This document shows positions 29,638 through 61,298 of a DNA stretch of 64,000 nt, piece after piece. The notes beneath the pieces were generated by a model, which did not search any database, was not told where the DNA came from, and saw nothing but the letters and a program-made list of their open reading frames with translations. Source of the stretch: Squalus acanthias. Taxonomy: Eukaryota. Both the position numbers and the translations under genes were made by a program. Numbering within the stretch: the stretch's first letter is position 1; every line of letters begins with the position of its first letter. The DNA lies in assembly GCA_030390025.1 (NCBI GenBank), contig CM059431.1, positions 139,192,001-139,256,000 on the forward strand, read 5' to 3'.

Positions 29638-29842
29638 GCTTGGCAGCAAAATGGATTACAGGTCTCTCCAGGCTGAGATTCAAGGCTGCAATGAGCAGGG
29701 TGTGGCTGGGGAGCAAGTGCCCCCCCCCCCCACTTTAAGAAGTGTCCGGCGCCAGTGTGTCTGTGTTCCCTCGCTAACTGGCAGCAGCTGCGCTGCGCTC
29801 GTGTGCTGAGTTAGCGCCTCACTCCTTGGCCTTTGCGCCTTA

Positions 29843-30160
29843 CATAGATACATAGATACATAGAAGATAGGAGCAGGAGTAGGCCATCCGGCCCTTCGAG
29901 CCTGCTCCGCCATTTAATGAGATCATGGCTGATCCTTCAATTCAGTATCCCGTCCCCGCCTTCTCTCCGTAACCCTTAACCCCTTTTGCCTGTAGAAATA
30001 TATCTAATTCCCTCTTAAATATATTTAATGAGCTGGCGTACACTGCCCTCTGTGGCAATGAGTTCCACAGGTTCACCACTCTCTGAGTGAAGAAATTCCC
30101 CCTCATTTCTGTCCTAAATGGTTTAGCCCTTATCCTTAAATTATGTCCTCTAGTTCTGTT
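29843..30160 (-). mobile_element. 318-bp 5'-truncated CR1 copy inserted in the Harbinger
   Basis: Identical by eye to 15408-15725; TSD CCTTA at 29838-29842 and 30170-30174; absent from the corresponding site in the non-autonomous element (~3125). Confidence 0.95.
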
Positions 30161-34204: not shown

Positions 34205-35134
34205 TCACGTATCTCCAGGGCAGTCCACAGTTGCCGCATCTGCCATTGCATTCCAGAAGAACAGCAGCTCGGAGAGTTTCACCCCGTGAGAGGTCACGAG
34301 TTTCCGAAATGTGCAAACAGAAAACGGGACTTTTGAAATGTAAAATATTTGGCGCGAGTGGATTTCCACAGGCTCGATCTTCAACTTAGCCAGACAGAGA
34401 GCGACGAAAACGTCCTCGAGTTTCAATTTGGGGACGGTACTCGAAACGTTCCAAACTCGGCAGGCGACATCAGTCGAGAGCACGTACCCAGTGCCGGAGC
34501 AGAATGGCGGATACGTTTCCAGCGGGTATTCCTGTTCACTAACGTACCATTTGTCGTTTTTTATCCTCACGGGTCGTTGATGTCTCTGTATGTAGCCGGT
34601 GAAGATGTTGCTGCGACTGGTTCGTGACAAGAGCTCTCTCAGATAATCAACATTGACAAACATGTCTGAATCGGTTTTCATCAGAAAGGAGGCGGACGGA
34701 CAAAATCGGATGACCCATTCCAGGCCCATCAGCACCTTGATGGTCAGGTTGTAATAAGTGTCGCTGAACTCTTTCTGTATGATGTCTTTGTGCAGCAAAC
34801 CTTCCTCTAGCAGATGCTCCTGATCCTCCCGGCTGTACCCGAGCAGGAAGTATGTCACTACCCTCTTGCCATGTGTTGTCCGCTCTCTGCCCCAGGTCTG
34901 GCGAATGGCCGAGCGAGCTTCGAACTGGTCCAGGGCACTGGTGACAAGAAGGACCAGGAATGGGGGACTGACGTCACACCTGCTGTCGGGTCTCATTAAA
35001 AAGGGGGACTCATTTAATTCTGTGTAATGCCAATGCTCAGTATTATTGCGGCTTAAATGTCTGAGTAATATAAATATCAGCAAAACGGTCACACAAACAA
35101 ATGAATATTTGTAGCACGTCTTTCGGAACAACAT
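34205..35134 (-). CDS. B3GALT5: Beta-1,3-galactosyltransferase 5 (GT31), 309 aa, single coding exon
   Basis: Type II anchor, PPFLVLLVTS, AIRQTWG, YYNLTIK, MKTDSDMFVN (DxD), YPPFCSGTGYV, LEDVFV, terminal DCP; colinear with the human protein as I recall it. Acceptor TTTTGTTTTACAG ends at 35170, 35 nt above the ATG. Confidence 0.93.
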   Translation of the reverse strand: MLFRKTCYKYSFVCVTVLLIFILLRHLSRNNTEHWHYTELNESPFLMRPDSRCDVSPPFLVLLVTSALDQFEARSAIRQTWGRERTTHGKRVVTYFLLGYSREDQEHLLEEGLLHKDIIQKEFSDTYYNLTIKVLMGLEWVIRFCPSASFLMKTDSDMFVNVDYLRELLSRTSRSNIFTGYIQRHQRPVRIKNDKWYVSEQEYPLETYPPFCSGTGYVLSTDVACRVWNVSSTVPKLKLEDVFVALCLAKLKIEPVEIHSRQIFYISKVPFSVCTFRKLVTSHGVKLSELLFFWNAMADAATVDCPGDT

Positions 35135-35260
35135 GTTGCATCAGAAAATATCTTCTTGTTTTGAATCACCTGTAAAACAAAATAAACAAATTGATTTTGT
35201 TGGATAACGGGTAATGCAAGGGGTAACACTTTCCAGTTAAAATTACTTGGCTCGATTACT

Positions 35261-35680: not shown

Positions 35681-35945
35681 GACTGAAAGTGAAGGGAACA
35701 AATTGAGAGTAATAATTTCACAAGCGCTTCGGGGAGACTGTCGGCTGGATCATCATAGCAGCTCTTAACTTGTTGGTCTGGTGTTGTCTCTGATTTTAAC
35801 AACTCCCACGACAATAAGTGGTTTAATTTAAATAAGTTGGAGTCGCCGCTAAAATAATCGAACCCGAAGGTCATCGGAGCGTTTAAAGCAGTTGTCATCT
35901 TGTCAGCAGTGTATCATAAATATGGAAACAGAATACATGCTGGAA

Positions 35946-38900
35946 GGTAGAAACAGTGGATGTCCAAAGCTAGAAACCGTGGTGGTCCAAAGCTAGAAAG
36001 AGTGACGGTCCAAAGCTAGAAACAGTGGTGTTCCAAAGCTAGACACTGTGAAGATCCAAAGTAAGAAAGAATTGAGAACCAAAGCTAGAAACTGTGAAGG
36101 TCCAAATCTAGACACAGTGGTGGTCCAAAGCTTGAGACAGTGAAGGTCCAAAGCTAGAAACAGTGAAGGTCGAAAGCTGGAAAGAGTGGTGGTCCAAAGC
36201 TAGAAACAGTGGAGGTCCAAATCTAGAAACAGTGGAGGACCAAAGCTAGAAACAGTGGCGGTCCAAAGCTAGAAACAGTGGTGGTCCAAAGCTAGAAACA
36301 GTGAAGGTCCAAAGCTAGAAACAGTGGAGGGCCAAAGCTAGAAACAGTGGTGGACCAAAGCTAGAAACAGTGGTGGTCCAAATCTAGAAACAGTGGAGGT
36401 CCAAAGCTAGAAACAGTGGAGGTCCAAAGCTATAAACAGTGGTGGTCCAAAGCTAGAAACAGTGGTGGTCCAAAGCTAGAAACAGTGAAGGTCCAAAGCT
36501 AGAAACAGTGGAGTTCCAAAGCTAGAAAGAGTGGAGATCCAAAGCTAGAAACAGTGAAGGTCCAAAGCTAGAAATAGTGAAGGTCCAAAGCTAGAAAGAG
36601 TGGAGATCCAAAGCTAGAAACAGTGAAGGTCCAAAGCTAGAAACAGTGAAGGTCCAAAGCTAGAAACAGTGAAAGTCCAAAGCTAGAAAGAATGAAGGTC
36701 CAAAGCTAGAAAGAGTGGAGATCCAAAGCTAGAAACAGTGAAGGTCCAAAACTAGAAACAGTGACGGTCCAAAGCTAGAAACAGTGCAGGTCCAAAACTA
36801 GAAATAGTGAAGGTCCAAAGCTAGAAACAGTGAAGGTCCAAAGATAGAAAGAGTGGAGATCCAAAGCTAGAAACAGTGAAGGTCCAAAGCTAGAAACAGT
36901 GAAGTTACAAAGCTGGAAGCAGTGAAGGTCCAAAGCTAGAAACAGTGAAGGTCCAAAGCTAGAAACAGTGAAGGTCCAAAGCTAGAAACAGTGTAGGTCC
37001 AAAGCTAGAAACATTGAAGGTCTAAAGATAGAAACTGTGGAGGTCCAAAGCTAGAAACAGTGGAGGTCCAAAGCTAGAAACAGTGAAGTTCCAAAGTTAG
37101 AAAAAGTGAAGGTCCAAAGCTAGAAACAGTGTAGGTCCAAAGCTAGAAACAGTGAATGTACAAAGCTAGAAATGGTGGAGGTCCAAAGCTAGAAACAGTG
37201 AAGGTCCAAAGCTATAAACAGTGTAGGTCCAAAGATAGAAAGAGTGGAGATCCAAAGCTAGAAACAGTGAAGGTCCAAAGCTAGAAACAGTGAAGTTACA
37301 AAGCTGGAAGCAGTGAAGGTCCAAAGCTAGAAACAGTGAAGGTCCAAAGCTAGAAACAGTGAAGGTCCAAAGCTAGAAACAGTGTAGGTCCAAAGCTAGA
37401 AACATTGAAGGTCTAAAGATAGAAACTGTGGAGGTCCAAAGCTAGAAACAGTGGAGGTCCAAAGCTAGAAACAGTGTAGGTCCAAAGCTAGAAACAGTGA
37501 ATGTTCATAGCTAGAAATGGTGGAGGTCCAAAGCTAGAAACAGTGAAGGTCCAAAGCTAGAAACAGTGTAGGTCCAAAGCTAGTAACAGTTTTGGTCCAA
37601 AGCTAGAAACAGTGAATGTTCAAAGCTAGAAATGGTGGAGGTCGAAAGCTAGAAACAGTGAAGGTCCAAAGCTAGAAGCAATGGAGGTTCAATGCTAGAA
37701 ACAGTGAAGGTCCAATGCTAGAAACAGTGTTGGTACAAAGCTAGAAACAGTGGAGTTCCAAATCTAGAAACAGTGGAGGTCCAAATTTGGAAAATGTGGA
37801 GGTCCAAAGCTAAAGAGAGTGAAGGTCCGAAGTTGGAAACAGTGGAGGTCCAAAGCTGGAAACAATGAACATCCAAAGCTAGAAACAATGGAGGTCCTAA
37901 GCTAGAAACAGTGGAGGTCCAAAGCTAGAAACAGTGTAGATCCAAAGCTAGAAACAGTGAAGTTCCAAAGCTGGAAACAGTGAAGGTCCAAAGAACGAAA
38001 AAGTTGCGATCCAAAGCTAGAAACTGTGAAGGTCCAAATCTAGACACTGTGGAGGTCCAAAGCTAGAAACAGTGAAGGTCCATAGCTAGAAACAGTGAAG
38101 GTCCAAAGCTAGAAACAGTGAAGGTCCAAAGCTAGAAACAGTGAAGGTCCAAAGCTGGTAACAGTAAAGTTCCAAAGTTAGAAACAGTGAAGGTCCAAAG
38201 CTAGAAACAGTGAAGATCCAAAGCTAGAAATATCGGGGGTCCAAAGCTAGGAACAGTGAAGGTCCAAAGCTAGAAATAGTGAAGGTCCAAAGCTAGAAAT
38301 AGCGGAGGTCCAACGCTAGAAACAGCGAAGTTCCAAAGTTGGAAACTGTGGAGGTCCAAAACTAGAAAGAGTGAAGTTCCAAACCTAGAAAAAATGGAGG
38401 CCCAAAGCTAGAAACAGTGAAGCTCCAAAGCTAGAAACAGTGAAGGTCCAAATCTAGAAACAGAGGTGGTCAAAAGTTAGAAACAGCGAAGGTCCAAAGC
38501 TAGAAACGGTTGAGATCCAAAGCTAGAAACAGTGGCGGTCCAAAGCTAGAAACAGTGAAGGTCCAAAGATAGAAACAGTGAAGTTCCAAAGCTAGTAACA
38601 GTGATGGCCAAAGCTAGAAATAGTGAAGGTCCAAAGCTGGAAACAGTGAATGTTCAAAGTTAGAAACAGCGAAGGTCCTAAGCTAGAAACAGTGAAGCTC
38701 CAAAGCTGGAAACAGTGCTGGTGCAAAGCTAGAAACAGTGGATGCCAAAGATAGAAACAGTGAAGGTCGAAAGCTAGAAACAGTGGAGGTCCAAAGCTAG
38801 AAACAGTGTTGGTGCAAAGCTAGAAACATTGAAGTTCCAAAGATAGAAACAGTGAAGGTCGAAAGCTAGAAACAGTGGAGGTCCAAAGCTAGAAACAGTG

Positions 38901-41900
38901 GAGGTCCAAAGCTAGAAATGGTGAAGATCGAAAGCTAGAAACAGTGGAGGTCCAAAGCTAGAAACAGTGGAGGTCAAAAGCAAGAAACATTGGAGGTCCA
39001 AAGCTACAAAGAGTAGAAGTCCAAAGCTAGGAGCAGTGAAGGTCCAAAGATAGAAATAGCGGAGGTCCAAAGCAAGATACATTGAAGGTGCAAAGGTAGA
39101 GTCAGTGAAGGTCCAAAGCGAGAGGCAGTGGAGTTCCAAATCAAGAAACAGTGAAAGTCCAAAGCTAGAAACAGTGAAGGTACAAAGCTAGAAACAGTGA
39201 AGTTCCAAAGCTAGAAGCTTTGAAGGTCCAAAGCTAGAAACAGTGAAGGTCCAAAGCTAGAAACAGTGAAGGTCCAAAGCTAGAAACAGTGAAGGTCCAA
39301 AGCTAGAAACTGTGGAGTTCCAAAGCTAGAAACAGTGAACATCCAAAATTTAGAAAAAGTGAAGGTACAAAGCTAGAAACAGTGTAGGTCCAAAGCTAGA
39401 AACAGTGAATGTTCAAAGCTAGAAATGGTGGAGGTCCAAATCTACAAACAGTGGTGGTCCAAAGCTAGAAACAGTGAAGGCCCAAAGCTAGAAACAGTGG
39501 AGTTCCAAAGCTAGAAAGAGTGGAGATCCAAAGCTAGAAACAGTGAAGGTCCAAAGCTAGAAACAGTGATGGTGCAAAGCTAGAAACAGTGAAGGTCCAA
39601 AGCTAGAAAGAGTGGAGATCCAAAGCTAGAAACAGTGAAGGTCCAAAGCTGGAAACAGTGAAGTTCCAAAGCTAGAAACAGTGAAGGTCCAAAGCAAGAA
39701 ACAGTGAAGGTCCAAAGCTAGAAATAGAGAAGGTCCAAAGCTAGAAACAGTGAAGGTCCAAAGCTACAATCATTGGAGGTCCAAAGCTAGAAACAGTGAA
39801 GATCCAAAGTTAGAAAAAGTGAAGGTCCAAAGCTAGAAACAGTGTAGGTCCAAAGCTAGAAACAGTGAATGTTCAAAGCTAGAAATGGTGGAGGTCCAAA
39901 GCTAGAAACAGTGAAGGTCCAAAGCTAGAAACAGTGTAGGTCCAAAGCTAGAAACAGTGTTGGTCCAAAGCTAGAAAAAGTGAATGTTCAAAGCTAGAAA
40001 CTGTGGAGGTCGAAAGCTAGAAACAGTGAAGGTCCAAAGCTAGAAGCAGTGGAGGTTCAATGCTAGAAACAGTGAAGGTCCAAAGCTAGAAACAGTGTTG
40101 GTACAAAGCTAGAAACAGTAGAGTTCCAAATCTAGAAACAGTGGAGGTCCTAATTTGGAAAATGTGGAGGTCCAAAGCTAAAGAGAGTGAAGGTCCGAAG
40201 TTAGAAACAGTGGAGGTCCAAAGCTGGAAACAATGAAGATCCAAAGCTAGAAACAGTGGAGGTCCAAAGTTAGAAACAGTGGAGGTCCAAAGCTAGAAAC
40301 AGTGAAGATCCAAAGCTAGAAACAGTGAAGTTCCAAAGCTGGAAACAGTGAAGGTCCAAAGAACGAAAAAGTGGCGATCCAAAGCTAGAAACTATGAAGG
40401 TCCAAATCTAGACACTGTGGAGGTCCAAAGCTAGAGTCAGTGAAGGTACAAATCTAGAAACAGTGAAGTTCCAAAGCGAGAAAGAGTGGTGGTCCAAAGC
40501 TAGAAACAGTGGTGGTCCAAAGCGAGAAAGAGTGGAGATCCACAGCTGGAAACAGTGGAAGTCTAAAGCTAGAAACAGTGAAGTTCCAAAGCTAGAAACA
40601 GTGAAGGTCCAAAGCTAGAAACAGTGAAGGTCCAAAGCTGGAAACAGTGAAGATCCAAAGCAAGAAATAGCGGGGGTCCAAAGCTAGGAACAGTGAAGGT
40701 CCAATGCTAGAAATAGTGAAGTTCCAATTCTAGAAATAGCGGAGGTCCAAAGCTAGAAACAGCGAAGTTCCAAAGTTCAAACTGTGGAGGTCCAAAACTA
40801 GAAAGAGTGAAGGTCCAAACCTAGAAAAAATGGAGGTCCAAAGCTAGAAACAGTGAAGGTCCAAAGCTAAAAACAGTGAAGATCCAAATCTAGAAACAGA
40901 GGTGGTCAAAAGTTGGCAACAGCGAAGGTCCAAAGCTAGAAACAGTTGAGATCCAAAGCTAGAAGCAGTGGCGGTCCAAAGCTAGAAACAGTGAAGGTCC
41001 AAAGCTAGAAAGAGTGGAGGTCCAAAGCTCGAAACAGTGAAGTTCCAAAGTTAGAAACAGTGAAGGTCCAAAGCTAGAATCAGTGTTGGTACAAAGCTAG
41101 TAACAGTGAGGGCCAAAGCTAGAAATAGTGAAGGTCCAAAGCTGGAAACAGTGAATGTTCAAAGTTAGAAACAGTGAAGGTCCTAAGCTAGAAACAGTGA
41201 AGGTGCAAAGCTAGAAACAGTGTTGGTCCAAAGCTAGAAACAGTGGAGGTCCAAAGCTAGAAACAGTGTAGGTCCAAAGCTAGAAACAGTGAATGTTCAA
41301 AGCTAGAAATGGTGGAGGTCCAAATCTACAAACAGTGGTGGTCCAAAGCTAGAAACAGTGAAGGCCCAAAGCTAGAAACAGTGGAGTTCCAAAGCTAGAA
41401 AGAGTGGAGATCCAAAGCTAGAAACAGTGAATGTCCAAAGCTAGAAACAGTGATGGTGCAAAGCTAGAAACAGTGAAGGTCCAAAGCTAGAAAGAGTGGA
41501 GATCCAAAGCTAGAAACAGTGAAGGTCCAAAGCTAGAAACAGTGAAGTTCCAAAGCTAGAAACAGTGAAGGTCCAAAGCAAGAAACAGTGAAGGTCCAAA
41601 GCTAGAAACAGTGAAGGTCCAAAGCTAGAAAGAGTGAAGGTCCAAAGCTACAAACAGTGGAGGTCCAAAGCTAGAAACAGTGAAGATCCAAAGTTAGAAA
41701 AAGTGAAGGTCCAAAGCTAGAAACAGTGTAGGTCCAAAGCTAGAAACAGTGAATGTTCAAAGCTAGAAATGGTGGAGGTCCAAAGCTAGAAACAGTGAAG
41801 GTCCAAAGCTAGAAACAGTGTAGGTCCAAAGCTAGAAACAGTGTTGGTCCAAAGCTAGAAAAAGTGAATGTTCAAAGCTAGAAATGGTGGAGGTCGAAAG

Positions 41901-44900
41901 CTAGAAACAGTGAAGGTCCAAAGCTAGAAGCAGTGGAGGTTCAATGCTAGAAACAGTGAAGGTCCAAAGCTAGAAACAGTGTTGGTACAAAGCTAGAAAC
42001 AGTGGAGTTCCAAATCTAGAAACAGTGGAGGTCCTAATTTGGAAAATGTGGAGGTCCAAAGCTAAAGGGAGTGAAGGTCCGAAGTTAGAAACAGTGGAGG
42101 TCCAAAGCTGGAAACAATGAAGATCCAAAGCTAGAAACAGTGGAGGTCCAAAGTTAGAAACAGTGGAGGTCCAAAGCTAGAAACAGTGAAGATCCAAAGC
42201 TAGAAACAGTGAAGTTCCAAAGCTGGAAACAGTGAAGGTCCAAAGAACGAAAAAGTGGCGATCCAAAGCTAGAAACTATGAAGGTCCAAATCTAGACACT
42301 GTGGAGGTCCAAAGCTAGAGTCAGTGAAGGTACAAATCTAGAAACAGTGAAGTTCCAAAGCGAGAAAGAGTGGTGGTCCAAAGCTAGAAACAGTGGTGGT
42401 CCAAAGCGAGAAAGAGTGGAGATCCATAGCTGGAAACAGTGGAAGTCTAAAGCTAGAAACAGTGAAGTTCCAAAGCTAGAAACAGTGAAGGTCCAAAGCT
42501 AGAAACAGTGAAGGTCCAAAGCTGGAAACAGTGAAGATCCAAAGCAAGAAATAGCGGGGGTCCAAAGCTAGGAACAGTGAAGGTCCAATGCTAGAAATAG
42601 TGAAGCTCCAATTCTAGAAATAGCGGAGGTCCAAAGCTAGAAACAGCGAAGTTCCAAAGTTCAAACTGTGGAGGTCCAAAACTAGAAAGAGTGAAGGTCC
42701 AAACCTAGAAAAAATGGAGGTCCAAAGCTAGAAACAGTGAAGGTCCAAAGCTAAAAACAGTGAAGATCCAAATCTAGAAACAGAGGTGGTCAAAAGTTGG
42801 CAACAGCGAAGGTCCAAAGCTAGAAACAGTTGAGATCCAAAGCTAGAAACAGTGGCGGTCCAAAGCTAGAAACAGTGAAGGTCCAAAGCTAGAAAGAGTG
42901 GAGGTCCAAAGCTCGAAACAGTGAAGTTCCAAAGTTAGAAACAGTGAAGGTCCAAAGCTAGAATCAGTGTTGGTCCAAAGCTAGTAACAGTGAGGGCCAA
43001 AGCTCGAAATAGTGAAGGTCCAAAGCTGGAAACAGTGAATGTTCAAAGTTAGAAACAGTGAAGGTCCTAAGCTAGAAACAGTGAAGGTCCAAAGCTAGAA
43101 ACAGTGTTGGTCCAAAGCTAGAAACAGTGGAGGTCCAAAGCTAGAAACAGTGAAGGTCCAAAGATAGAAACAGTGAAGGTCGAAAGCTAGAAACAGTGGA
43201 GGTCCAAAGCTAGAAACAGTGGAGGTCCAAAGCTAGAAATAGTGAAGGTCGAAAGCTAGAAACAGTGGAGGTCCAAAGCTAGAAACAGTGGAGGTCAAAA
43301 GCAAGAAACATTGGAGGTCCAAAGGTACAAAGAGTAGAGATCCAAAGCTAAAAGCAGCGGAGGTCCAAAGCAAGATACATTGAAGGTGCAAAGGTAGAGA
43401 CAGTGAAGGTCCAAAGCGAGAGGCAGTGGAGTTCCAAATCTAGAAACAGTGAAAGTCCAAAGCTAGAAACAGTGAAGGTACAAAGCTAGAAACAGTGAAG
43501 GTTCAAAGTAAGAAACAACTGAGATCCAAAGAAGAGACAGTGAAAGTCCAAAGCTAAATAGAATTGAGCTCCAAAGCTAGAAACAGTGGAAGTCCGAATC
43601 TAGAAACAGTGGAGGTCCAAAGCTAGAAACAGTGGAGGTCCAAAGCTACAAACAGTGGAGGACCAAAGCTAGATACAGTGAAGGTCCAAAACTAGAGACA
43701 GTGAAGGTCCAAAGCTAGAAACAGTGACGGTCCAAAGCTAGAAACAGTGAAGGTCGAAAGTAAGAAACAATTGAGATCCAAAACTAGAATCTCTGATGGT
43801 CCAAAGCTAGACACAGTGAAGGTCAAAGCTAGAAACAGTGGAGGTCCGAAGCTAGAATAGTGAAGTTCCCAATTTAGAAACAGTGGAGGTCCGAAGCTAG
43901 AATAGTGAAGTTCCCAATTTAGAAACAGTGGAGGTCCAAAGCTAGAAATAGTGAAGTTCCCAATTTAGAAACAGTTGAGGTCTAAAGCTAGAAACAGTGG
44001 AGATCCAAAGCTAGACACATTGAAGGTCCAAAGCTAGAAACAATGGAGGTCCAGAGCTAGAAACAGTGGAGGTCCAAAGCTAGAAACAGTGAAGGTCCAA
44101 AGTTAGAAACAATGAAGGTCCAAAGCTAGAAACAGTGAAGGTCCAAAGCTAGAAACAGTGTTGGTCCAAAGCTAGAAACAGTAGAGGTCCAAAGCTAGAA
44201 AAAGTGGAGGTCCAAAGCTAGAAACAGTGGAGGTCCGAAGCTAGAAATAGTGAAGTTCCCAATCTAGAAACAGTGGAGGTCCAAAGCTAGAAATAGTGAA
44301 GCTCTCAATCTAGAAACAGGGCGGTCCAAAGCTAGAAATAGTGAAGTTCCAAATCTTGACACAGTGAAGGTCAAAGCTAGAATCAGTGGAGGTACGAAGC
44401 TAGAAATAGTTAATTTCCAAATCTAGAAACAATGGAGGTCCAAAGCTAGAAATAGTGAAGTTCCCAATCTAGGAACAGTGGAGGTCAAAAGCTAGAAACA
44501 GTGGAGATCCAAAGCTAGACACATTGAAGGTCCAAAGCTAGAAACAATGGAGGTCCAAAGCTAGAAACAGTGAAGGTCCAAATCTAGAAACAGTGGATGG
44601 TCGAAAGCTAGAAACAGTGGAAGTCCAAAGCTAGAAACAGTGAAGGTCCAAAGCGAGAAACAGTGAAGATACAAAGCTAGAAACATTGCAGTTCCAAAGC
44701 TAGAAACAGTAAAGGTCCAAAGCTAGAAACAGAAAAGGTCCAAAGCTAGAAACAGTGAAGGTCCAAATCCAGAAACAAAGGATGTCCAAAGCTAGCAATA
44801 GCGGTTGTCCTAAGCTAGAAACAGTGGAGGTCCAAAGCTAGAAATAGTGAAGTTCCCAATCTAGAAAGAGAGGAGGTCTAAAGCTAGTAACAGTGAAGGT

Positions 44901-47449
44901 CCAAAGCGAGAAACAGTGGAGGTCCAAAGCTAGAAACAGTGTAGGTCCAAAGCTAGAAACAGTGAAGGTCCAAATCCAGAAACAAAGGATGTCCAAAGCT
45001 AGAAATAGCGGTTGTCCAAAGCTAGAAACAGTGGAGTCCAAAGCTAGAAACAGTGGAGGTCCAACACTAGAAACAGTGAAGGTCCATAGTTAGAAACAGT
45101 GGAGGTCCAAAGCTAGAAACAGTGAAGGTCCAAAGCGAGAAACAGTGAAGGTCCAAAGCGAGAAACAGTGAAGATACAAAGCTCGAAACATTGACGTTCC
45201 AAAGCTAGAAACAGTGAAGGTCCAAACCTAGAAACAGTGGAGATCCAAAGATGGAAAAAGCGATGTTGCAAAGCGAGAAACGGGTGAGATCCAAAGCTCG
45301 AAACAGTGGAGGTCCAAAGCTAGAAACAGTGAAGGTCCAAAGCTAAAACAATGTTGGTGCAAAGCTAGAAACAGTTTTGGTGCAAAGCTAGAAACAGTGT
45401 TGGTCCAAAGCTAGAAACAGTGGTGGTCCAAAGCTAGAAACAGTGAAGGTCCAAAGCTAGAAATAGCGGAGGTCCAAAGCTAGAAACAGTGAAAGTCCAA
45501 AGTTGAAAACAGTGGAGGTCCAAAGCTAAAAAGAGTGAAGGTGCAAAAGGAGAAACAGTCATGGTCCAAAGCTAGAAACAGTGGAGGTCCAAAGCTAGAA
45601 ACATTTAAAGTCCAAAGCTAGAAACAGTGGAGGTCCAAATCTAGAAACAATGAAGGTCCAACGCTAGAAACAGTGGAGATCCAAAGCTAGAAACAGTGAA
45701 CGTCCAAAACTAGTAACAATGAAGGTCGAAAGCGTGAAAGAGTGGAGCTCTAAAGCTAGAAAGAAAGGAGCTCCAAAGCTAGAAACATAGGAGGTCCAAA
45801 ACTAGAAAGCGTGGAGATCCTAAGCTAGAAACAGTGAAGGTCCAAAGACTGAAACAGTGGAGATCCAAAGCTAGAGAAAGTGAAGGGCCAAAGCTAGAAA
45901 CAGTGAAGGTCCAAAGCTAGAAACAGTGTAGGTCCAAAGCTATAAACAGTGTAGGTTCGAAGCTAGAAATAGTGAAGTTCCCAATCTGGAAACAGTGGTG
46001 GTCCAAAGCTAGAAATGGTGAAGTTCCCAATCTAGAAACAGTGGAGATCCAAAGCTGGAAATAGTGACGTTCCCAATCTAGAAACTGTGGAGGTCCAAAG
46101 CTAGAAACACTGAAGTTCCCAATCTAGAAACAGTGGAGGTCGAAAGGTAGAAACAGTGGAGGTCCGAAGCTAGAAATAGTGAAGTTCCCAATCTTGAAAC
46201 ATTGGCGGTCCAAAGCTAGAAATAGTGAAGTTCCCAATCTAGAAACAGTGAAGTTCCAAAGCTGGAAACAGTGAAGGTCCAAAGAACGAAACAGTGGAGA
46301 TCCAAAGCTAGAAACTGTGAAGGTCCAAATCTAGACACAGTGGAGGTCCAAAGCTAGAGACAGTGAAGGTCCAAATCTAGAAACAGTGAAGGTCCAAAGC
46401 GAGCAAGAGTGGTGGTCCAAAGCGAGAAAGAGTGGTGGTCCAAAGCTAGAAACAGTGGTGGCCCAAAGCGAGAAAGAGTGGAGATCCAAAGATAGAAACA
46501 GTGAAGTTCCCAATCTAGTAACAGTGGAGGTCCAAAGCTAGAAATACGAAGTTCCCAAGCTAGGAACAGTGGAGTTCCAGAGCTAGAAATAGTGAAGTTC
46601 CCAATCTAGAAACAGTGGAGGTCCAAAGCTAGAAGTAGTGAAGTTCCAAATCTAGACAGAGTGAAGGTCAAAGCAAGAAACAGTGGAGTACCGAATCTAG
46701 AAATAGTGAAGTTCCCAATCTAGAAACAGTGGAGGTCCAAAGCTAGAAATAGTGAAGTTCCCAATCTAGAAAGAGAGGAGGTCTAAAGCTAGTAACAGTG
46801 AAGGTCCAAAGCTAGAAACAGTGGAGGTCCAAAGCTAGAAACAGTGTAGGTCCAAAGCTAGAAACAGTGAAGGTCCAAATCCAGAAACAAAGGATGTCCA
46901 AAGCTAGAAATAGCGGTTGTCCAAAGCTAGAAACAGTGGAGTCCAAAGCTAGAAACAGTGGAGGTCCAACACTAGAAACAGTGAAGGTCCATAGTTAGAA
47001 ACAGTGGAGGTCCAAAGCTAGAAACAGTGAAGGTCCAAAGCGAGAAACAGTGAAGGTCCAAAGCGAGAAACAGTGAAGATACAAAGCTAGAAACATTGAC
47101 GTTCCAAAGCTAGAAACAGTAAAGGTCCAAAGCTAGAAACAGAAAAGGTGCAAAGCTAGAAACAGTGAAGGTCCAAATCCAGAAACAAAGGATGTCCAAA
47201 GCTAGAAATAGCGGTTGTCCAAAGCTAGAAACAGTGGAGTCCAAAGCTAGAAACAGTGGAGGTCCAACACTAGAAACAGTGAAGGTCCATAGCTAGAAAC
47301 AGTGGAGGTCCAAAGCTAGAAACAGTGAAGGTCCAAAGCGAGAAACAGTGAAGATCCAAAGCAGAAACATTGACGTTCCAAAGCTAGAAACAGTGAAGGT
47401 CCAAACCTAGAAACAGTGGAGATCCAAAGCTAGAAAAAGCGATGGTGCA
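35946..47449. repeat. 11.5-kb satellite, 23-bp unit (GTCCAAAGCTAGAAACAGTGRAG)n, about 500 copies, with higher-order structure
   Basis: Continuous 23-bp periodicity; variant markers recur at 1884-bp and 391-bp spacing. Confidence 0.98.
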
Positions 47450-47454
47450 AAAAA

Positions 47455-48960
47455 TAATTTCTGAAGGAAAATATCCTTTGTTACCTAGTTCATATCATTG
47501 AAGTACTACACAAATACACGGCGATTTCGCTACATTAACACTATAGTTGATTTTTCATGTCCTTAACTTCTGCTGCGGATCGTGATTCTGATTCCAGAGA
47601 GTCTGGGTAAATTAGCGTTGTGGATGCTGCAGGTTAATGAACACACCCTGAGTAAAGATCAGTTACACATCACAGTCATAAACAAGACATTCATGATGAT
47701 CAGTACAATCCCTCCCCGCCCTGTACTCTGGTGCAGAGCTCGATCAGAATCACACACGGTCTCATTCAAATTGCAACGTTCTGATAAATTACTGACGCTT
47801 TAACCAAAGTCATTAATCCTCTGCTTTGTAACAATGGCTACATTTCCCCACAGCTCTTCCATCTGCGGTTCAGAAGACCCCGCAGTGAAACCGTGTTCTG
47901 TAGCGGGAATAAGTTTCTTGTCCTCAATTAAATTTCATTATTCACCATAAAACCAGTTTATTATCGGAGCAGAAAAGGGCAAAGTGCGCAAGCGACAAAG
48001 TTCGCTGACTAAATTTAACGGAAAATAGTCTCTCATCAATGAGTAACAGTCTGGGCTTTGATCAGGCTGTTTACACCCATGAATATCAAGCTCCGGCTTC
48101 CAGTAACTGGAACTGACTCAGCCAATGTGTGCGGTAAACAAGTGATATTTCTGCTTCACCGGCCTGTTAACTTTTAGTGGTCGTGATTCATTTTCACATT
48201 TTCTTTCAATCTTTCTTTTAACAATTTGGCAGCGGATTAATATTATTATGAGATGGGAAAATCTGAAGATTCAATTAATTTCCCATTAGCAGTTGTATTT
48301 ATTATAAATATTGACATTTCGCACTACCTCTTGCGATTACTCAGTATCTCAATGATCTTCCTGCTTATCTGTGCTGTCGCTCCCAGTCTGTTACCGGCCC
48401 CCCTTGCTCCGTGCCTGAAATTCGTGTAATTAACCTTTCTGCTGCCCCAAAGGTGCTGTTCCTGGTCTTTAATGTTTGTTTCCATCCCGCACCGGTTCCA
48501 TTTATGTATTTCCGCTGTTTCCATTCCTATCAGCTCTGACTCTGTCCTAACTTCCCTTCCCTGCAACAGAGAACAGGGCGGGGAGAGATTGTATTAATCA
48601 GGCTGTAGGATGCACTTTCCATCCCACCTGCTCCATGCCTGAATGTCCCCCCGCATCTGTCTTTGCCTCCTGCTCTACAACCTTCCTCCACCTCTAACTA
48701 TCTGCCGCTAACCCTTTATTGTTCCCTATCTGCTGCAATCCTAATTTTACCCTTGGCCTTCCTTTCCTCCTGCTCCGTGCCCGATCCACTCACAGCTGTT
48801 CGCCCTCCAGCTCTATATCTGACTCTCCCTCTCCTTTCCTTTCCACCTACCCCATGCCTGATTGCCTTCCCTGCTTCATTCCCCATCCTGCTGCATGTCT
48901 GATTCTCCATCCACCGCAAACTATATATCAAAGCTATTCGACGTACTCTGGCGTCACAAT
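47455..48960 (-). promoter_or_regulatory. Duplicated candidate promoter/non-coding exon 1 region, copy A (donor mutated)
   Basis: Colinear with 51195-52760; GC box at 47711-47721; the donor position reads AAG|TTAAG at 47566-47562. Confidence 0.5.
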
Positions 48961-51194: not shown

Positions 51195-52760
51195 GTAAAT
51201 TTCTGAAATAAACTATCCTTTCATACTTTACTCAAAATAGATACTACAGCATTTCAATATCATTGAAAAATTACACAAATAAACAAGATGCTGAGTCCAC
51301 TCCGGTACATTTCAACAGTATAATTGTGCTCAGTACATTCCGGGTCCTTACCTTGTGCTGCGGCTCCTGATTCTGGTTCCAGAAAGTCTGGGTAAGTTAG
51401 CGTTGTGTGTTCTGCAGGTTAATGAACACACCCTGGGTAAAGATCAGTTACACATCACAATCATAAACCAGACCTTTAGCCTGATCAGTCCAATCCCTCC
51501 CCGCCCTGTTTTCTGGTGCAGGGTTCGATCTGAATCACACACGGTTTTATTCGAATTGAATTGTTCTGATGGAATACTGATCCTTTAACCAAAGTCATTA
51601 ATATTCGTTTTGACAACAATGACTACGTCTTTCCCCCCCCCCCCTCCCGCCACTCCAATCTCCTCCATCTGCGGTTCAGAAGACCCTGCGGAGAGACTGC
51701 GTTCCGTAGCAGGAATCACTTTCGTGTCTCAATTCGATTTGCTGACTCCCCATAAATCCTCTCTATTATCGGAGTATAAAAGGGCACAGATAGCAAGGGA
51801 CAAAGATCACTGTTAGTTTATTGGGATCATACACCAGAGGGAAGGGCACTGTGAACTATTGGAGTTAACACGTTAATGTTTTGGAATTACCTTCCCTTTC
51901 GATCATTAGCTTTTTCTTTGACCCGGTTCTAACTCTGTGTAAATGTAGTTCATTAGGATCCTGGCTCTATTAATCTGGGTATCCGGCTTTTTACAATGTT
52001 CACCTGATCTTGATTGACATGGAGTTCAGAATTCCCGTCACATGACCAGTTACAGGTTAGTTTTCAATGATGGTCATTTATCAGCAACAAAGAAACGATT
52101 ATAAAATCCGGGAGATGATCTCCAGTTAATTAGTAACAGTCTCGGCCTTGATCAGGTTGTTCACACCCAGGGGTATCAGTCTCCGGGTTTCACTTACTGG
52201 AACTGAATCAGCAAATGTGTTCGGTAAACAAGCGAACCGTCCGTATCATTGGCCAGTTAACTTTTATTGGTGGTGCTGTAAATTTCCATTTAATTTCCTT
52301 TCAAAAAGGGGGCAGCAAATTCAATTCATTATGAGACTGAGTAACTCTGAAAATTAAATCAATTTCCTAATTATAATTTGCATTTAACATAAATAATATA
52401 AACTTTATAAAATATATCCCGACTCCTCTGGGTCTGATTCCCCTTCCTCCTTCTCCGTGCCGCTCCTTCCGGTGCTTCATCTCTGGTTCCCCACCTATTC
52501 TGTTCCTGATGTTTCCTTCCCTCCCCCACCTGCTACAATCCTAATTCTCCCCTTTGCCTTCCTTTCCTCCTGCATGGTTCCTTATTCAGCCCCTGCATCC
52601 GTTCACCCACCGGCTCTTTATCTGATGCTCCCTGTCTTTCCTTTTCCATCTCCTCTATACCTGATTATCTTCCTTGCTTCCCTCTCCATCTTCATGTCTG
52701 ATTCCCCATTCAGCACAAAGGACACATCAAAGCTATTCAAATTACTCCAGCGTCACACTA
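51195..52760 (-). promoter_or_regulatory. Duplicated candidate promoter/non-coding exon 1 region, copy B (intact donor)
   Basis: GC box at 51496-51506 next to CCAAT at 51490-51494; consensus donor AAG|GTAAG at 51351-51347 oriented toward B3GALT5. Confidence 0.55.
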
Positions 52761-53802: not shown

Positions 53803-55200
53803 GACATAGAAGCATAGAATAGTACAGCATTGAAGGAGGCCGTTCTGTCCATCCAGTCTGCGCTGGCTCTTTCGAATAGCAATCCAGTTAGTCCCATTCC
53901 TCCAATCTTTCCCCATATCCCTGCAATGTTTTCTCCTTCAAGTATTTATCGAATTTGCTTTTGAAAGCTATTATTGAATCTGATTCCACCACCATATCAG
54001 GAAGTGCATCCCAAATGCAACCGAAACATTGTGTAATAAAGTTTTTCCTCATGATGCCTCTGGTTCTTTTGCCAATCACCTCAAATCTGTTGCCTTTTGT
54101 TATCGACCCTTCAGCCACTGAAAACCGTTTCTCTTTGTTCTCTCTATCTAATCCCTTCGTGATTTTAAACATCAGTATCTAATCTCCACTTAACCTTCTG
54201 TGTTCTTAGGACAACAATCCCAGCTTTTCCAGTCTATCCACGTAGCTCTAATCCCTCATTCCTGGAACTATTCTAGTAAATCTCTTCTGTACCCTCCCGA
54301 AATCCTTCATGTCCTTCCTAAATTGTGGTGCTCAGCATTAGACACAATACTCCAGCTGGGAAGGGGTGGGGTTCGAAATAACCTTTTATATAGGATTAGC
54401 GCACTTCTTGCCTTTTGTATCCATTGCCTCTACTTATAAAGCCCAGGATACTATAGGCTCTATTAACTGCTTTACTAACTTGTCCTGCCACCTTCAAACA
54501 TTTGTACTCAAAGATCCCCTGGTCTCTCTATTCTTGCACCCCATTTAAAATTGTATCATTTAGCCAAAATTGTCTCTCCCCAATCTACCAACCAAAATAT
54601 AGCCGGTCACACTTGTCTGCGTTGAAGTTAATCTGTCATGTGTTCGCACATTCCACCAGCATAACTATGCCCTGTTGAAGTTCATTTCACTAATCCTCAT
54701 TCTTTACTACGCTTCCAAGTTTCGTGTCACTTGCAAATTTCGAAATTGTGCCCTGTACCCTTAATTTTAAGTCATTGATATTTATCAAAAACAGCAGTGG
54801 TCCCAGTACTGAATCTTGGGGAAGACCAGTGTATTCTTCCCTCAAGTCCGAAAAAAGCAGCTATTCACCACAACACTCCGTTTTCTATCCTTTAGACAAT
54901 GTTATATCCATGCTGCTAATGCCTGTTTTATCCCAAGGCCTTCAATTTTGCGATCAAGCCAATTATGTGGTGCATTCATCAAACGCTTATCATCAACTCA
55001 CCCTCATCCACCCACTCTGTTAGCTAATCAAAAAACTCAATCAAGTTAGTAAAACACGAATTGCCCTCAACAAATCCGCACTGACTCTCCTTTATTAGTC
55101 CTTGCTTGTCCAGTTGGCTGGTAATGTTCTTGCGAATTACTGTTTCTAAACATATCCCCTCCATCGACGTTAAACTGACTGGCCTATAATTGTCAGATTT
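53803..55200 (-). mobile_element. CR1 LINE 3' fragment
   Basis: DNYRPVSLTS...CFTNLIEFFD and FKITKGLDR...IWDALPD motifs; tail at ~53805-53820. Confidence 0.9.
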
Positions 55201-55289
55201 CTTTAGACGAAAGTCAAGGAGATTGAGAGAATAGAACGACCCCCGCTCGGTGTTCTGGTCAGTTATAGCTACACACAATGGTAAAGGTT

Positions 55290-56369
55290 CCCGTGTGACT
55301 GGGTGGCAGGAGGATCCGTGGTCGGGCCGGCGTGAACCGAATAGATTTGACACTTGAAGTTCAAATTAAGAGTGTTCTAAGTCAGCAGAATGGGTTGTTA
55401 GGACGAGAAATGAAAGATCAACTCCAGGCCGTCCTTTCATTTATGGAATTGACACATGAGGATAAGGAAGTCGTGGAACAACTAAATGCTGTTAAACATA
55501 ATCAGGATAAAATAACTGGCAATATTACAAATGCCGTGGCATGTGCTATCTCTCTGGCATATTGGGAAAACGCAGTTAGTATAAGTTTGAGGGATCTCTG
55601 TGAACTTCGCCTCCCAGAATGTGTTCCCCACTCCGCCTCGGATGGATGTTTGGGAACACGGCTCCATACTTGTCCGGCTGGACAGTTTGTTCATGCCTAC
55701 CCGCTTCGAAGTTCCTGAAAAAAATTCGAGAGATACTAACCGTATTCCTCCGTTGGTTTGTTGATAAAGAAGGAGAACCGGTTCCACTTGTTTTGAGTAC
55801 AGTCCATTGGGCAAGTCGAGGATGGTCGCTTGTATAGATCAGAGACCCATCCCACTACTTGGAAAGTGGAGAGAAGGAATGGGGAACTGTAGGACTTACA
55901 GGATGTGAGTGAGACGGGAATACTTGATTATGTGGATGTGACGTCATCAAAGACCAGGCGTGTGGTTACACATTGCCTCTCAGTGCCCGGTCTGTAAGAT
56001 ATTCCTAATGTCGAACTAAGAAGGGACAAGTATAGGAGGATTGTCGCCTTTGGCCATCCGATACTCTCGCTCTCCTTTGATTTAAAGTCGGTTCAGCATC
56101 GGACTGCTCCGTCCCATGAACAGCTGTTCCACAGGCAGAAAATAATACCAGAACCAAACAGGAGAATCAACAGATTCCCATTCATGGTGGGAAATGATGT
56201 ATAACGCCGATCAACAGATATGGTATCGCCGACTGTCAGAATCTCAAATCACTGGCCAGAGCGCGCTGGAGGGATTTTACTCGCCTTAGCCTGGTGGATC
56301 AGACGGGCGATAAGGCGGCTAAACGAGAGAGCTAACGTACATGAAATGGCAACACGACTCAAAATGTAA
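55290..56369 (+). pseudogene. Decayed retroviral envelope/fusion glycoprotein-like gene
   Basis: Across frameshifts: VAGGSVVG/VNRIDL, helical ectodomain ...GNITNAVAC...YWENAVSISLRDL..LRLP, Cys cluster WGTVGLTGC...LCGCDVIKDQACG, SHSWWEMMYN, GGILLALAWWIRR, short tail ending TAA at 56367-56369. Confidence 0.6.
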
Positions 56370-57072
56370 TCTTCTTATAATCGTATAATTTTATAATAAT
56401 ATATATATATATATGTGTCATCAGGCTTCAATGCCAATGTTTGCACGCGGTTGCATAACATTTTCACGGGATGTGCAATGATGTCTCGTGCCTGAATGGT
56501 GAGATTGACAGGGCCCGACTTCAAGCGATGGAAAGTCAGTAATGCTGCTCAACAATTCCGTGAGGCTCCACAGGAAGTAGATATAAGAAAGTTTTCCATT
56601 TTTTCATCTCGCCCTGCCTGTTTACGCAAGTTAAAATGCCCTTGTGTCATACTAGCGGAGCTTGCAGGTTCCTGTTTGGGAACTAACTGAGCTTGTTGTT
56701 GCGCGAGCCTGAAACTTACAGGTAACAGCTGGTGAACAACATACGGTTAGGGGCAAGGGCAGAGAGTACTAATTAGACCCCAGCACATTGTGTATAATTA
56801 TAGGGCGAGTGGTCAGTGGGGCGGGGGGTGGGGGGTTCCTGATCAACCACCTTCGATTCGCAGTCTGATCAGTTCGCGATCCACGGTAGTCAGGTTGTAT
56901 AATTGTTCAGTTATCATACTAACATTGTTAACGTTACTTAACTTCAATAAACTTAATCTTTGTACGGAACCTCGCCATCACAAATTTACATTCTGGCGTC
57001 CCTGGGTGGACTACAGATTTCAGAGTGTTAGCGAGTTCTAGGCCCTTATTACATCACGTGTGACTAAACTTT

Positions 57073-57258
57073 GGCCTAGAAATTCGTCTCTGGCGGTGTC
57101 GAAAAACGGGCGGTATCGGATCGGTCGCCCGTTATACGCAATGCCTGATATTCAGTTCCATTGACTGCACTAGAACTGAACCTCAGGCTCTTCTTATAAA
57201 GGGCGGCCGATCCGATATCGCACGTTTCTTGCCACCGTCCGAGAAGAATTTATAACCC
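57073..57258. mobile_element. Palindromic MITE, second copy of the 7570-7755 family
   Basis: GGCCTAGAAATTCGTCTC ... GAGAAGAATTTATAACCC; internal sequence colinear with copy 1. Confidence 0.8.
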
Positions 57259-58495
57259 CTTGTGTTCCGACCAAGAAGCGGCAGCGAGCAGCAGCTGCTG
57301 CTCTGGAGCGGTGCCCGTATCCCATTGGGTTTGGCTGTGCAGAGTCTCGGCTCCCGGAAGTGCAGAATTTCGAAGGCCAGATGTGAAGTTGAAGAATTTA
57401 TTGTCTCCTGGCCGGTGCCGGTATCTTAATCTCAGGGCCCGGAGTGGTTATTGCCGATCAGAGGAGAGCATCTGAGGGAGGCAGTGGGAGAGGTGCAGAA
57501 TATTTGAACTGTCGCAAGCTAATATGGGAAGCCCCAGTCCGGTACTCCCAAAAAAACAGGCGATTCAGTAGGAACTGGAGCTCCCGGTAAAGGAAAATAA
57601 CTGGGTTAACAATGGCATTATTTGGGGAAATATCGGATGATCGAGTTCACCTCACGGAGCTGTAGCCGCAGGAGTGAAACCGCAGGTAAACTCTGATGGT
57701 TATGAGAGCCCCAATGGGAGACACACCGGATCCTGTTCGTCAAATAGGTAGTTACCGTGTCTCTAATAATGTGTTCAGGCCTGTCGATTCAGAGAGGATT
57801 ACAGATATCTGCACATACTAAAATCAAATGTAAGCATTATTTCTGACAGACCTGAAAATCAACAAAGCAGCGACATTCGCCAACAGTAAGAGGATTATCT
57901 CACTACATTCCAAAATCAGACAACCTTACCTAGCGCAGGACACAGCAACCACAGCCCACACTCTCTGTCCGGGGAACTGTGGCTCTTCATTGGAGGTTTC
58001 GCGCGGATCATCTTCTAGGTGGAAACTCACTATTTTAGTACCTTTCTTTATCACTGTGTCCATGGGTATGTGACTGTCAGCATTTCACACCAGTTGTTTC
58101 CCTTACAGTCCCCACACTCTTTGATTCACAGGAGATGCCAAATCAGATGTTTCTCTTCCTGCAGCGTAGCAACTCAACTTATCCTCCTTATCCTAACACC
58201 ATGTCGCCCAGCACATACTCTTATGTAGCTGGTCATCCGTCTCTGACTGGGAACTCTCAGCTCTGAAGTATCTTCCTCAACGATATCACTCTTTAGACAC
58301 GAACGTGTTTGTTCCTAGCTCTGTTCACCGTCATGTTCTGACACTGGGTTTCCCTACTGTGTCAAGGCAAAAAACAGAGTCGTTTGTCTCCTGCTTTCAT
58401 TTCTCCTTATGGATGACAAACCTATTGAACTGAAATTTCCCCTGTCACACACATTTACAATAGTGGCTCTTTCTTCTAGTATGCTTCGATGTGGT

Positions 58496-58940
58496 GTTAG
58501 AATATCGTGTTAACAGACAGGAGCTGGGAATGAGCATCACTACACTCCCCCAGATATAGAGTTAGACTATCATGTTAACATACAGGAGTTGGAAATGAGC
58601 ATCACTGCACTCCCACAGATATAGAGTTAGACTGTCGTGTTAACAGACAGGAGCTGAGAATGATCACTACTGCACTCCCGCAGATATAGTGTTAGACTAT
58701 CGTGTTAACAGACAGGAGCTGGGAATGAGCATCACTGCACTCCCGCAGATATAGAGTTATACTATCGTGTTAGCAGACGAGCTGGGAATGATCATCACTG
58801 CACTCCAGCAGATATAGAGTTAGACTATCGTGTTAACAGACAGGAGCTGGGAATGACCATCACGACACTCCCGCAGATTTAGAGTTAGACTATCGTGTTA
58901 ACAGGAGCTGGGAATAATCATCACAACACTCCCACAGCTA
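58496..58940. repeat. 65-bp minisatellite, about 6.7 copies
   Basis: GTTAGACTATCGTGTTAACAGACAGGAGCTGGGAATGAGCATCACTGCACTCCCGCAGATATAGA at 58561, 58626, 58691, 58756 etc. Confidence 0.93.
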
Positions 58941-59185: not shown

Positions 59186-60083
59186 TCATCTTTTAACAAA
59201 TTGGAGTATTAGTTTTCAGGGAGATTTTAGCACATTCTTCAACTCTTCTCTGAATTTCCTCTGGTTAGCTGCATAAATACATGTGTTTGTGCAAGAACTC
59301 AAATACATGAGCAGGTACCCGCTTTCGGTGGCGATATATCCAGGATTTGAGTCATCGCCTTGGTAATAAACGGTGCTTGACAGCCTGGTGGCTGCAAAAC
59401 TCCCGACAGCTGTCAGCCACGAGAGTATAAACCTGACCGATATAGTGAAGAGTAAAATAATGGATTTCCATCGTTTCTCCATCTCTGTATCGCTCTGATT
59501 CTCACTGCTGTGACCCCGGAGTCCCCTGCGGGCTCTACTCGCCACTAAAATGCGTCTGACGGTCAAAGAATTAAACAGGGCCATGAAAGCGAAGGGGAGC
59601 AATGGGACTGATAGAGTCTGGATCCAGCTGTATACTGACCATGCGGGTAATGTAAAAACGTCCACAGTTGTCCGACAACCCCACTGCACATTGTTAATTA
59701 TTTGTTCAGCTTCATATTAAAACAAGATAGGGAGACCCTTTAAATAGGTCAGGACAGAGACCGTTACTATAACCGCGGTGGCGGTTCGCTCGATGCAATA
59801 CTTCGCTTTAAATCCCTGACAGCAGATCGCCACAAATCGGTCAAATGTGAAGGAGATTGTAAACCACACCGACATATCCAGGTTGGCAAAGGTTAGATAT
59901 AGAAGGAACATACAAACGGCAGTGTAGGACAGGAATGAATATGGATAGTTATAATCAAATACACTATTACGTTTATGATCATGACCAGTAGATCTGCTGT
60001 TGCCATGGCCAACATGTATACAGAGATACACTTGGAAAGCTCGCAGTTTCCTCGGGAGAGAATCACAATTGTCAATACGTTTG
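59186..60083 (-). pseudogene. GPR139/GPR142-like GPCR pseudogene (exon 2)
   Basis: TIVILSRGNCELSKC, MATADL, FTFDRFVAIC, SSCTNTCIYA; frameshift near 59950, in-frame TAA at 59719-59717, TGA at 59218-59216, acceptor reads TTACAA instead of AG. Confidence 0.9.
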
Positions 60084-61298
60084 TTGTAAGAGAGAGAGAA
60101 GAGGAAAGTTACCAGGGACACACACGGAAATGGCCAGCGGTGTAGCTACCTCGGGTGATATACAAGGGAACCATATTAATAGCGAGCACTAAAGAGAATG
60201 TTAAAAAGAAAGAAAACATTTCACCGCCAAAATAGAGGTATACATTCCGTGATCCTTCCAGCAGAGTCCGGCTGGAAGTTGCCAAGGGAGCGGGATCCGG
60301 AGGGATGGCTGGGAGCAGGGTTTGGAAGACTATGGTCAGTTAGAGATGTCTGTAATCCGAGGAATTTTCCACATTCAGTAAACTGAACAAAATTAGTAAT
60401 TGAATCAGTGTCACGGAAACCACGCAGACAATATGTAGTGAGCGGCCTCCTGTACAGGGGAAAGAGAACCTCGCCGTCCCGCGGTACAGGGAGGGGTTTC
60501 GAGAGCCGACTCCCCACGATTAATCGCCCAGAATAGCGCCTCGCCTGCCGCCCGGACTGGAAGGACAACCACTGAGATTCGCAAGCTTATTCCAGTGCTT
60601 TTGTGAATTTACAGTGAGGATGATATCCGGAAATTATTACAATATCCGGGAAAGGTACTATTTAATGTTATTTGTCATATTACACAACCCACTACATAGA
60701 ATGACCAGGAGATTACTGATACAGACAGATAATCAGGGGTGGACTCATCAGGAAGAGTTGTCAGCGCGTAGTTCTAATCTCCTTACGTTGGACAAAGGCA
60801 GACATTAAAGTTTTATGATGTGGCATAATCTATAGTGCTAGTAACGCTTCGCTAACGTGATGATAACATGTCAACGCGTTCTGTTTATTTCTAATTAATA
60901 GGTAACGCATTAACCCATTAAGCCATCTTGTAATTTATCTAATGGTCTTAATGAGCATGGGCGTCGCTATCATTGATTTTCTCAAGGTTTGTACCTTACT
61001 ATCACATCTAATCTCACACCTTCTCTATTAGACTATTGTATTCAGTCAGTCTTCTGACCATCACCTGTCTGCTTCGCTCGGTGCCCAGACACACCATGTC
61101 AGATTATTACTCCATTAATGTAGGGTCACAGTTTCTAATCTTAGTTAAAATATGTGTAAGTTCCTTCAATATTGAAAAATGTCAAATAAAGTTATTAGAA
61201 TTATTAGGGTCTTCTCCACCTGGCCTACCCTTGTCTACACTTGCGCTTATAGACTTATTAGAGGAACTGATTCTCACAAAAACGCACAGCATGATGCA

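Follow-up and report, generated by a model that had tools for sequence, protein, structure and literature searches.

The window analyzed here, 64,000 nucleotides of Squalus acanthias DNA, contains on its plus strand a short stretch that is almost certainly the fossil of a retroviral envelope (env) gene (Table 1). A preliminary description of the window had reported a series of envelope-like motifs in several frames, and all of the motifs it named are present at about the places where it put them, spread over the three forward frames of 55288-56369. It was also right that a CR1 element abuts the 5' side of the remnant, on the minus strand from about 53805 to 55200. The same description had seen no gag, pol, or LTR. 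No gag or pol was found by us either, but the statement about the LTR is probably wrong, because an LTR-like 3' end followed by a tRNA-Asn primer binding site (PBS) lies 580-640 bases downstream of the env remnant.

Table 1 Features of the env locus and its flanks, in window positions
Feature	Position	Strand	Evidence or remark
CR1 LINE, 5'-truncated, decayed	53805..55200	-	Adjoins 5' side of env remnant
Interval from CR1 to fusion peptide; probably the end of SU with a decayed cleavage site	55201..55287	+	Assigned by position only
Fusion-peptide-like segment	55288..55335	+	Gly-rich, split over two frames; read by eye
Heptad-repeat-1-like helix	55336..55540	+	tblastn HSP 55326-55625, E 7e-5
Motif N-x-S/T-x-A-L/V-x-C-x16-D-x6-P (NIT/AVAC, LRD..LP)	55521..55616	+	Common to Ovex1 ORF3 and the shark proteins
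Cys-rich domain, first half, with stops	55841..55975	+	tblastn HSP, E 0.024
Best conserved block, leading into second helix	56010..56141	+	20/44 identical; tblastn HSP and profile match
Membrane-proximal H-x-WW-E region	56164..56268	+	tblastn HSP; HSWWE at 56179-56193
Broken anchor, WWIRR (56292-56306), 20-residue tail, stop (56367-56369)	56268..56369	+	
Probable LTR, left edge undefined	56370..56990	+	TA repeat near 56388-56423, AATAAA 56946-56951, CA end 56989-56990
tRNA-Asn PBS	56994..57011	+	17/18 bases; three bases after LTR-like CA end
Palindromic MITE-like insert	57073..57258	undefined	Second copy at 7563-7755, ~81% alike
GC-/CpG-richer stretch after PBS, possibly proviral leader	57260..57700	+	GC 0.50-0.52

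The remnant follows the order of a transmembrane (TM) subunit, and its alignment to three intact shark proteins, described below, meets heptad 1, heptad 2, the aromatic membrane-proximal motif, the anchor, and the tail colinearly. The fusion-peptide-like segment has W at position 5 and G at position 9, as in the shark proteins when read by eye, and the frameshift-aware alignment to these proteins begins within it, at 55320-55326. The longest open piece (139 codons, 55299-55718) contains the heptad-1-like helix, whose best hydrophobic share at the a and d positions is 0.6, an uncontrolled figure. Right after the first half of the Cys-rich domain, near 55972, about 68 residues of the relatives are absent in the alignment path to each of the three proteins. 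At the 3' end, where XP_067889054.1 aligns into the remnant as far as 56345, the hydrophobic terminus of the preliminary description was only partly recovered: WWIRR and the 20-residue tail are there, but the anchor is not clean in any single frame, with a best 19-residue Kyte-Doolittle mean of 1.31 versus 2.47-2.49 in two intact relatives.

The three forward frames of 55288-56369 hold 21, 19, and 8 stops, the last count including the terminal stop; there are 7 to 21 internal stops per frame, and no single frame carries the alignment. The frameshift-aware paths require 6-8 frame switches, placed approximately near 55695, 55760-55790, 55855-55905, 55997, 56154, and 56273, and run through 3-4 stops. 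The gene is consequently hidden by frameshifts, as had been proposed, but also by in-frame stops and by the gap of about 68 residues. By its sequence, the window copy is dead and yields no working protein today.

A phmmer search of 1.84 billion protein representatives gave a single match at E ≤ 0.001, the 739-residue GCC29952.1 (E 8e-5), and this one significant homolog is itself env-like, in agreement with the view of the remnant as a non-gamma retroviral envelope. With GCC29952.1 as the query, tblastn returned four colinear HSPs in three frames, at the coordinates in Table 1; its other HSPs in the window were one at 29.2-29.5 kb (E 0.052) and a remainder above E 2. A profile built from the three shark proteins ranked the same four places as the top four across the whole window. 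Frameshift-aware alignment, the check that the preliminary description had recommended, scored 161, 168, and 180 against the three proteins, with identities of 95/302, 101/314, and 103/339 (~31%). The controls, run with GCC29952.1, had maxima of 46 (40 protein shuffles) and 49 (42 other window stretches), and the env scores lie more than 20 standard deviations above both kinds of control.

The main window frame had no match in Pfam or among PDB sequences, Pfam scans of 12 frames around the env locus returned no retroviral family, and neither the window nor the relatives had a Pfam or PDB sequence match to any Env or F family. A word-based search with the window frame yielded none of 1431 candidates, all of them within lengths 199-636, and the related locus was found in 0/26 pattern matches in viral contigs and 0/191 in metagenome contigs. 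Atlas placed the 139-residue stretch with a dynein domain (0.95) at a recognition score of 1360, which is below the reliable range, and we rejected this match as a helix artifact.

The CX6CC motif of gamma-type Env had been noted as missing, and the three shark proteins, like positions 55000-56500, contain neither CX6CC nor CX5-7CC. An immunosuppressive domain, sought through Pfam Env families only, gave no match in the window frames or the relatives. The R-x-K/R-R furin pattern, present in all three relatives, is absent from the plus strand at the matching place. Alignment of 126 stretches of the window, from both strands, to the surface subunit (SU) half of the relatives produced no credible SU remains, and on the plus strand upstream of the env remnant no score exceeded 39. 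The highest SU scores came from the minus strand near 57451; at 54-56, where the mean was 34, they were treated as chance. To judge from these alignments, the window holds only the TM (fusion) half of env.

A search for intact copies, also recommended in the preliminary description, found them in other genomes, but as distant cousins rather than as the window copy. The three proteins, GCC29952.1 from Chiloscyllium punctatum, XP_072333160.1 from Scyliorhinus torazame, and XP_067889054.1 from Heterodontus francisci, are annotated as uncharacterized or hypothetical and represent three orders. They are intact ORFs of 739-754 residues that include SU. Their whole-length identity is 85-88% without internal gaps (TM ectodomain 89-93%, SU 82-83%, tail 47-63%), and their cysteines are conserved 19/19. 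Each possesses an R-x-K/R-R site and an H-x-WW-D motif and lacks CX6CC, and both of the relatives that were profiled, of the three, show a single strong hydrophobic span near the C-terminus. GCC29952.1 carries, from the furin site to the anchor, a fusion peptide, heptad region, Cys-rich domain, and WW motif, and the predicted proteins have the anatomy of an envelope precursor. An Ig-like domain is named for GCC29952.1 by one annotation source, and its residues 68-145 gave weak Ig-heavy-chain matches in a PDB sequence search (E 0.05-0.9). The TM part of the shark relatives is ~460 residues long; gamma-type TM is much shorter.

Word-limited searches with regions of GCC29952.1 retained 2/5708 and 2/193 candidates, which were the same two clusters, and returned no Ovex1-family proteins. 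Only three species were found, and each relative was seen on one contig (longest 2.8, 216, and 163 Mb). This pattern suggests that the shark relatives fit a single domesticated non-gamma env gene. At the protein level, however, much the same picture would be expected from separate recent infections by closely related viruses. The window copy shares with the relatives the TM layout in the same order and ~31% identity over 302-339 aligned codons, and differs from them in having no SU, in being broken and ~68 residues short, and in preceding an LTR-like end and PBS.

The CR1 that adjoins the remnant was recognized by tblastn of the window's own intact ORF2 (residues 549-983 at 53906-55200) and by blastn to other copies from 53805; its end at 55200 is 87 bases before the fusion peptide. 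That intact ORF2, of 988 residues, belongs to a second minus-strand CR1 at 15507-19399, which has a 316-residue open frame upstream (ORF1 by position); its 3' end is found again at 29945-30160, where the translation is identical.

Sequencing data contain further copies of the env locus. A small share of the stretch's words was present in 9 of the 13 listed sequencing runs, none of the 13 being an RNA run. Related pieces were taken from four of these runs, representing four organisms, with 32 of 6234 pieces listed. Eleven listed pieces lie mainly on env, and their divergence from the window is 0-10% of letters. The CR1-env junction is crossed by one listed piece (55086-55310, 11 of 225 letters different). 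Two listed pieces cover the internal env gap, needing just 2 and 5 gap letters, and another bridges the PBS and the edge of the MITE-like insert, an edge that in 4/4 sequencing runs has high depth and many loose ends; none of those listed spans the whole stretch. As listed pieces share these three features, the deletion and the MITE, like the joining of CR1 to env, predate the split of these copies, which are either orthologs or duplicates of the window copy.

Downstream of env, the PBS is the sole window match with ≤4 mismatches to the tRNA-Asn sequence, and none of 2000 local shuffles came closer than 4 mismatches. The window contains no tRNA gene, and nothing in it reaches the gathering score of an Rfam family, which means that the PBS does not belong to a recognizable tRNA gene. 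A PBS belongs behind the 5' LTR. The order env-LTR-PBS consequently suggests two proviruses in tandem with a common LTR, or else insertion of a second provirus immediately after env. No purine run of ≥9 that could serve as a polypurine tract exists between env and the PBS, there is no second LTR copy in the window, and no gag or pol was recognized, with no Pfam family in 3/3 frames of 57260-58482; the class of the virus and the connection of the PBS to env are thus unproven. The 18-base tRNA-Asn PBS that the window matches at 17 bases is the one printed for galago foamy virus (PMC4261875), and newt foamy-like endogenous retroviruses (ERVs) also use an Asn PBS (PMC5512871). The window's PBS would fit the foamy-like ERVs (clade Tu; Lys or Asn) without being diagnostic, provided that it belongs with env.

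The envelope type to which the remnant most likely belongs is that of Ovex1. The comparison consisted of spaced motifs set against the published ORF3, GGLTR11, and TERV sequences in supplements 4 and 5 of PMC2717909. The patterns were designed post hoc, with the sequences already seen, and hence support Ovex1 membership without proving it. All four patterns are present in each of the three shark proteins and 2/4 in the window. The one listed in Table 1 (motif A) occurs once in the six window frames and in none of 200 shuffled windows. The other three are a W/Cys cluster, YVG(K/R)G, and H-x-WW-E/D, and only H-x-WW-E/D was found in the window; of the two failures, one falls in the missing part and one is off on spacing. 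Counted by hand, the distance from the basic site to the conserved Asn is +18 in both Ovex1 ORF3 and GCC29952.1, and the window has this Asn within one residue of +18, across a frame switch. The spacings from C to D (17) and from C to P (24), also counted by hand, are the same in Ovex1, GCC29952.1, and the window, and Ovex1 and GCC29952.1 both contain YVG(K/R)G and H-x-WW(E/D).

Ovex1, GGLTR11, and TERV on the one side and the window and its relatives on the other are alike in having a Gly-rich peptide, which in the shark relatives follows a basic site as it does in Ovex1, identical motif A spacing, no CX6CC or ISD, H-x-WW-E/D before the anchor, and a short tail (PMC2717909). Ovex1 ORF3 itself is described in the available text of that paper as free of CX6CC and of an immunosuppressive motif. 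The order and spacing that the preliminary description had likened to Ovex1-type envelopes are borne out by these colinear motifs, within the limits of post hoc patterns, and its comparison with spuma-related ERVs agrees with the Asn PBS, which is not diagnostic. Atlas gave as its only listed match to GCC29952.1 an 874-residue chordate cluster (0.82), a lead only; zebra finch Ovex1 ORF3 is also 874 residues long (PMC2717909). Ovex1 in chicken and zebra finch is intact and expressed, has 873-874 residues, is accompanied by gag-pol, and had no PBS found, according to the parts of PMC2717909 consulted, whereas the window copy, compared by motifs alone, is dead, comes from a cartilaginous fish, and has an Asn PBS nearby. 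Most likely, on these motifs, the window env is of the Ovex1-like type, and we regard it as probable that the stretch is the decayed TM half of an old ERV env of the Ovex1 ORF3/GGLTR11/TERV type in a cartilaginous-fish genome.

An env fossil of some other non-gamma lineage, such as a foamy-like virus, a lokiretrovirus, or an env-bearing gypsy element, might resemble Ovex1 through a shared F-like plan. The Asn PBSs of galago foamy virus and newt foamy-like ERVs (PMC4261875, PMC5512871) would agree with such an origin, as would the layout of lokiretrovirus Env, which likewise combines a coiled coil and an anchor with a furin site and fusion peptide (PMC7947760), and the window has no pol for placement among the foamy-like (clade Tu) or Ovex1/SnRV-like (clade Huo) retroviruses. 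However, the motif A spacing, YVG(K/R)G, and H-x-WW match Ovex1 and TERV (PMC2717909). Lokiretrovirus Env matches Pfam PF00523 (F0) (PMC7947760), unlike the shark proteins, as single-sequence scans of GCC29952.1 and of the three TM ectodomains found no PF00523, and the available portion of PMC7947760 names no cartilaginous fish as hosts. Nor did foamy Env appear in any Pfam or PDB match of the window or the relatives. We consider an origin in another non-gamma lineage improbable.

It could also be argued that the stretch descends from the conserved shark gene as a pseudogene, either a decayed ortholog or a duplicate, with the LTR and PBS an unrelated neighbor. The only relatives found are indeed the three conserved shark proteins, and no polypurine tract ties env to the LTR. 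However, the window copy is ~31% identical to relatives that are 89-93% identical to one another in the same domain, and the listed env DNA pieces, differing by 0-10%, show too little decay to bridge this gap; an LTR-like end bearing a PBS directly downstream fits a provirus. This low identity, set against a drift of ≤10% in the window copy's own DNA relatives, makes orthology to the intact shark gene unlikely, and the pseudogene explanation as a whole is very unlikely. A chance assembly of motifs from three frames of noncoding DNA, which the lack of Pfam and PDB matches and the unrelated, low-recognition dynein lead from Atlas might encourage, is refuted by colinear HSPs and by frameshift-aware scores of 161-180 against controls of ≤49, and its probability is negligible.

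On the favored reading, the ancestral protein would have been a class I fusogen, cleaved at a basic site to give a long TM and a surface subunit headed by an Ig-like domain. That TM would have comprised a fusion peptide, heptad 1, a Cys-rich middle of ~250 residues, heptad 2, the WW motif, and the anchor, a layout that has more in common with foamy Env and paramyxovirus F than with the short hairpin of gamma-type Env. Foamy Env and the F proteins of paramyxo- and pneumoviruses are class I fusogens with a long folded region between the heptads (PMC11468914), and from the long Cys-rich region between the heptads we infer a fusion mechanism like theirs. AlphaFold2 models from three-sequence alignments had mean pLDDT values of 28.0 and 28.8, and Foldseek with the second model (pLDDT 28) returned nothing at E 0.001 or better. 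SU and everything upstream have been lost next to the CR1, and the order of env, LTR, and PBS would reflect two tandem proviruses with a shared LTR.

We present a wider hypothesis more tentatively, at somewhat less than even weight: the Ovex1 Env described from birds would be of an F-like, Ig-headed class whose viruses infected cartilaginous fish as well, and one member of it would have been domesticated before the split of horn, carpet, and ground sharks. Most of the value of the analysis lies in this side finding, a candidate for a domesticated envelope of galeomorph sharks; the window fossil itself is a dead fragment. It is nevertheless the pointer that ties the avian Ovex1/TERV envelope type to cartilaginous fish. 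If the hypothesis is true, the fossil, with its LTR end and tRNA-Asn PBS, would document as a provirus the lineage from which the gene came. The shark gene would then represent a very old captured non-gamma envelope in egg-laying sharks, outside the reach of syncytin-style screens. If confirmed, such a capture would be far older than those of the mammalian syncytins in relative age, and would make a non-gamma Env domestication testable in animals without a placenta.

Retroviral env genes of gamma-type or syncytin-like character have been described from cartilaginous-fish genomes, in surveys that used gamma-type or syncytin queries (bioRxiv 10.64898/2026.05.06.723177; 10.1101/2021.11.23.469661). 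The 2026 chondrichthyan survey demanded both ISD and CXnCC (bioRxiv 10.64898/2026.05.06.723177), so the Env type of the shark relatives, which has no CXnCC, falls outside its screen. In the literature surveyed, represented by partial texts, we found neither the three shark proteins nor a shark env of Ovex1 type described, and the available parts of PMC10699275, PMC13524379, 10.1101/2024.03.17.585361, PMC12813294, PMC8922424, and PMC6001957 do not mention this protein family. Env genes have been reported from 40 chondrichthyan genomes (PMC12813294), and 177 co-option events are attributed to Wang and Han 2020 in PMC8922424; the shark gene may already be included in either list.

The rest of the window holds repeats and other coding sequences. 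A satellite array at 35944-47451 has 501 copies of a 23-base unit over 11.5 kb and a strong strand skew. A Harbinger-like transposon at 26232-29655 has a plus-strand open DDE transposase (Pfam DDE_Tnp_4) with minus-strand open frames nearby, and a piece related to it lies at 2436-2849. Smaller repeats include seven copies of a 65-base tandem unit at 58496-58937, a near-perfect 96-base inverted repeat with a 1-base loop at 10897-11089, and two related segments, 48019-48958 and 52109-52757, which are ~75% alike, contain pyrimidine-rich subrepeats, and are probably a dispersed repeat. On the minus strand, a single-exon ORF of the galactosyltransferase family occupies 34205-35140 (311 codons, Pfam Galactosyl_T), and a rhodopsin-family GPCR-like remnant at 59216-60145 consists of two open pieces, the scanned one matching 7tm_1 below the cut-off.
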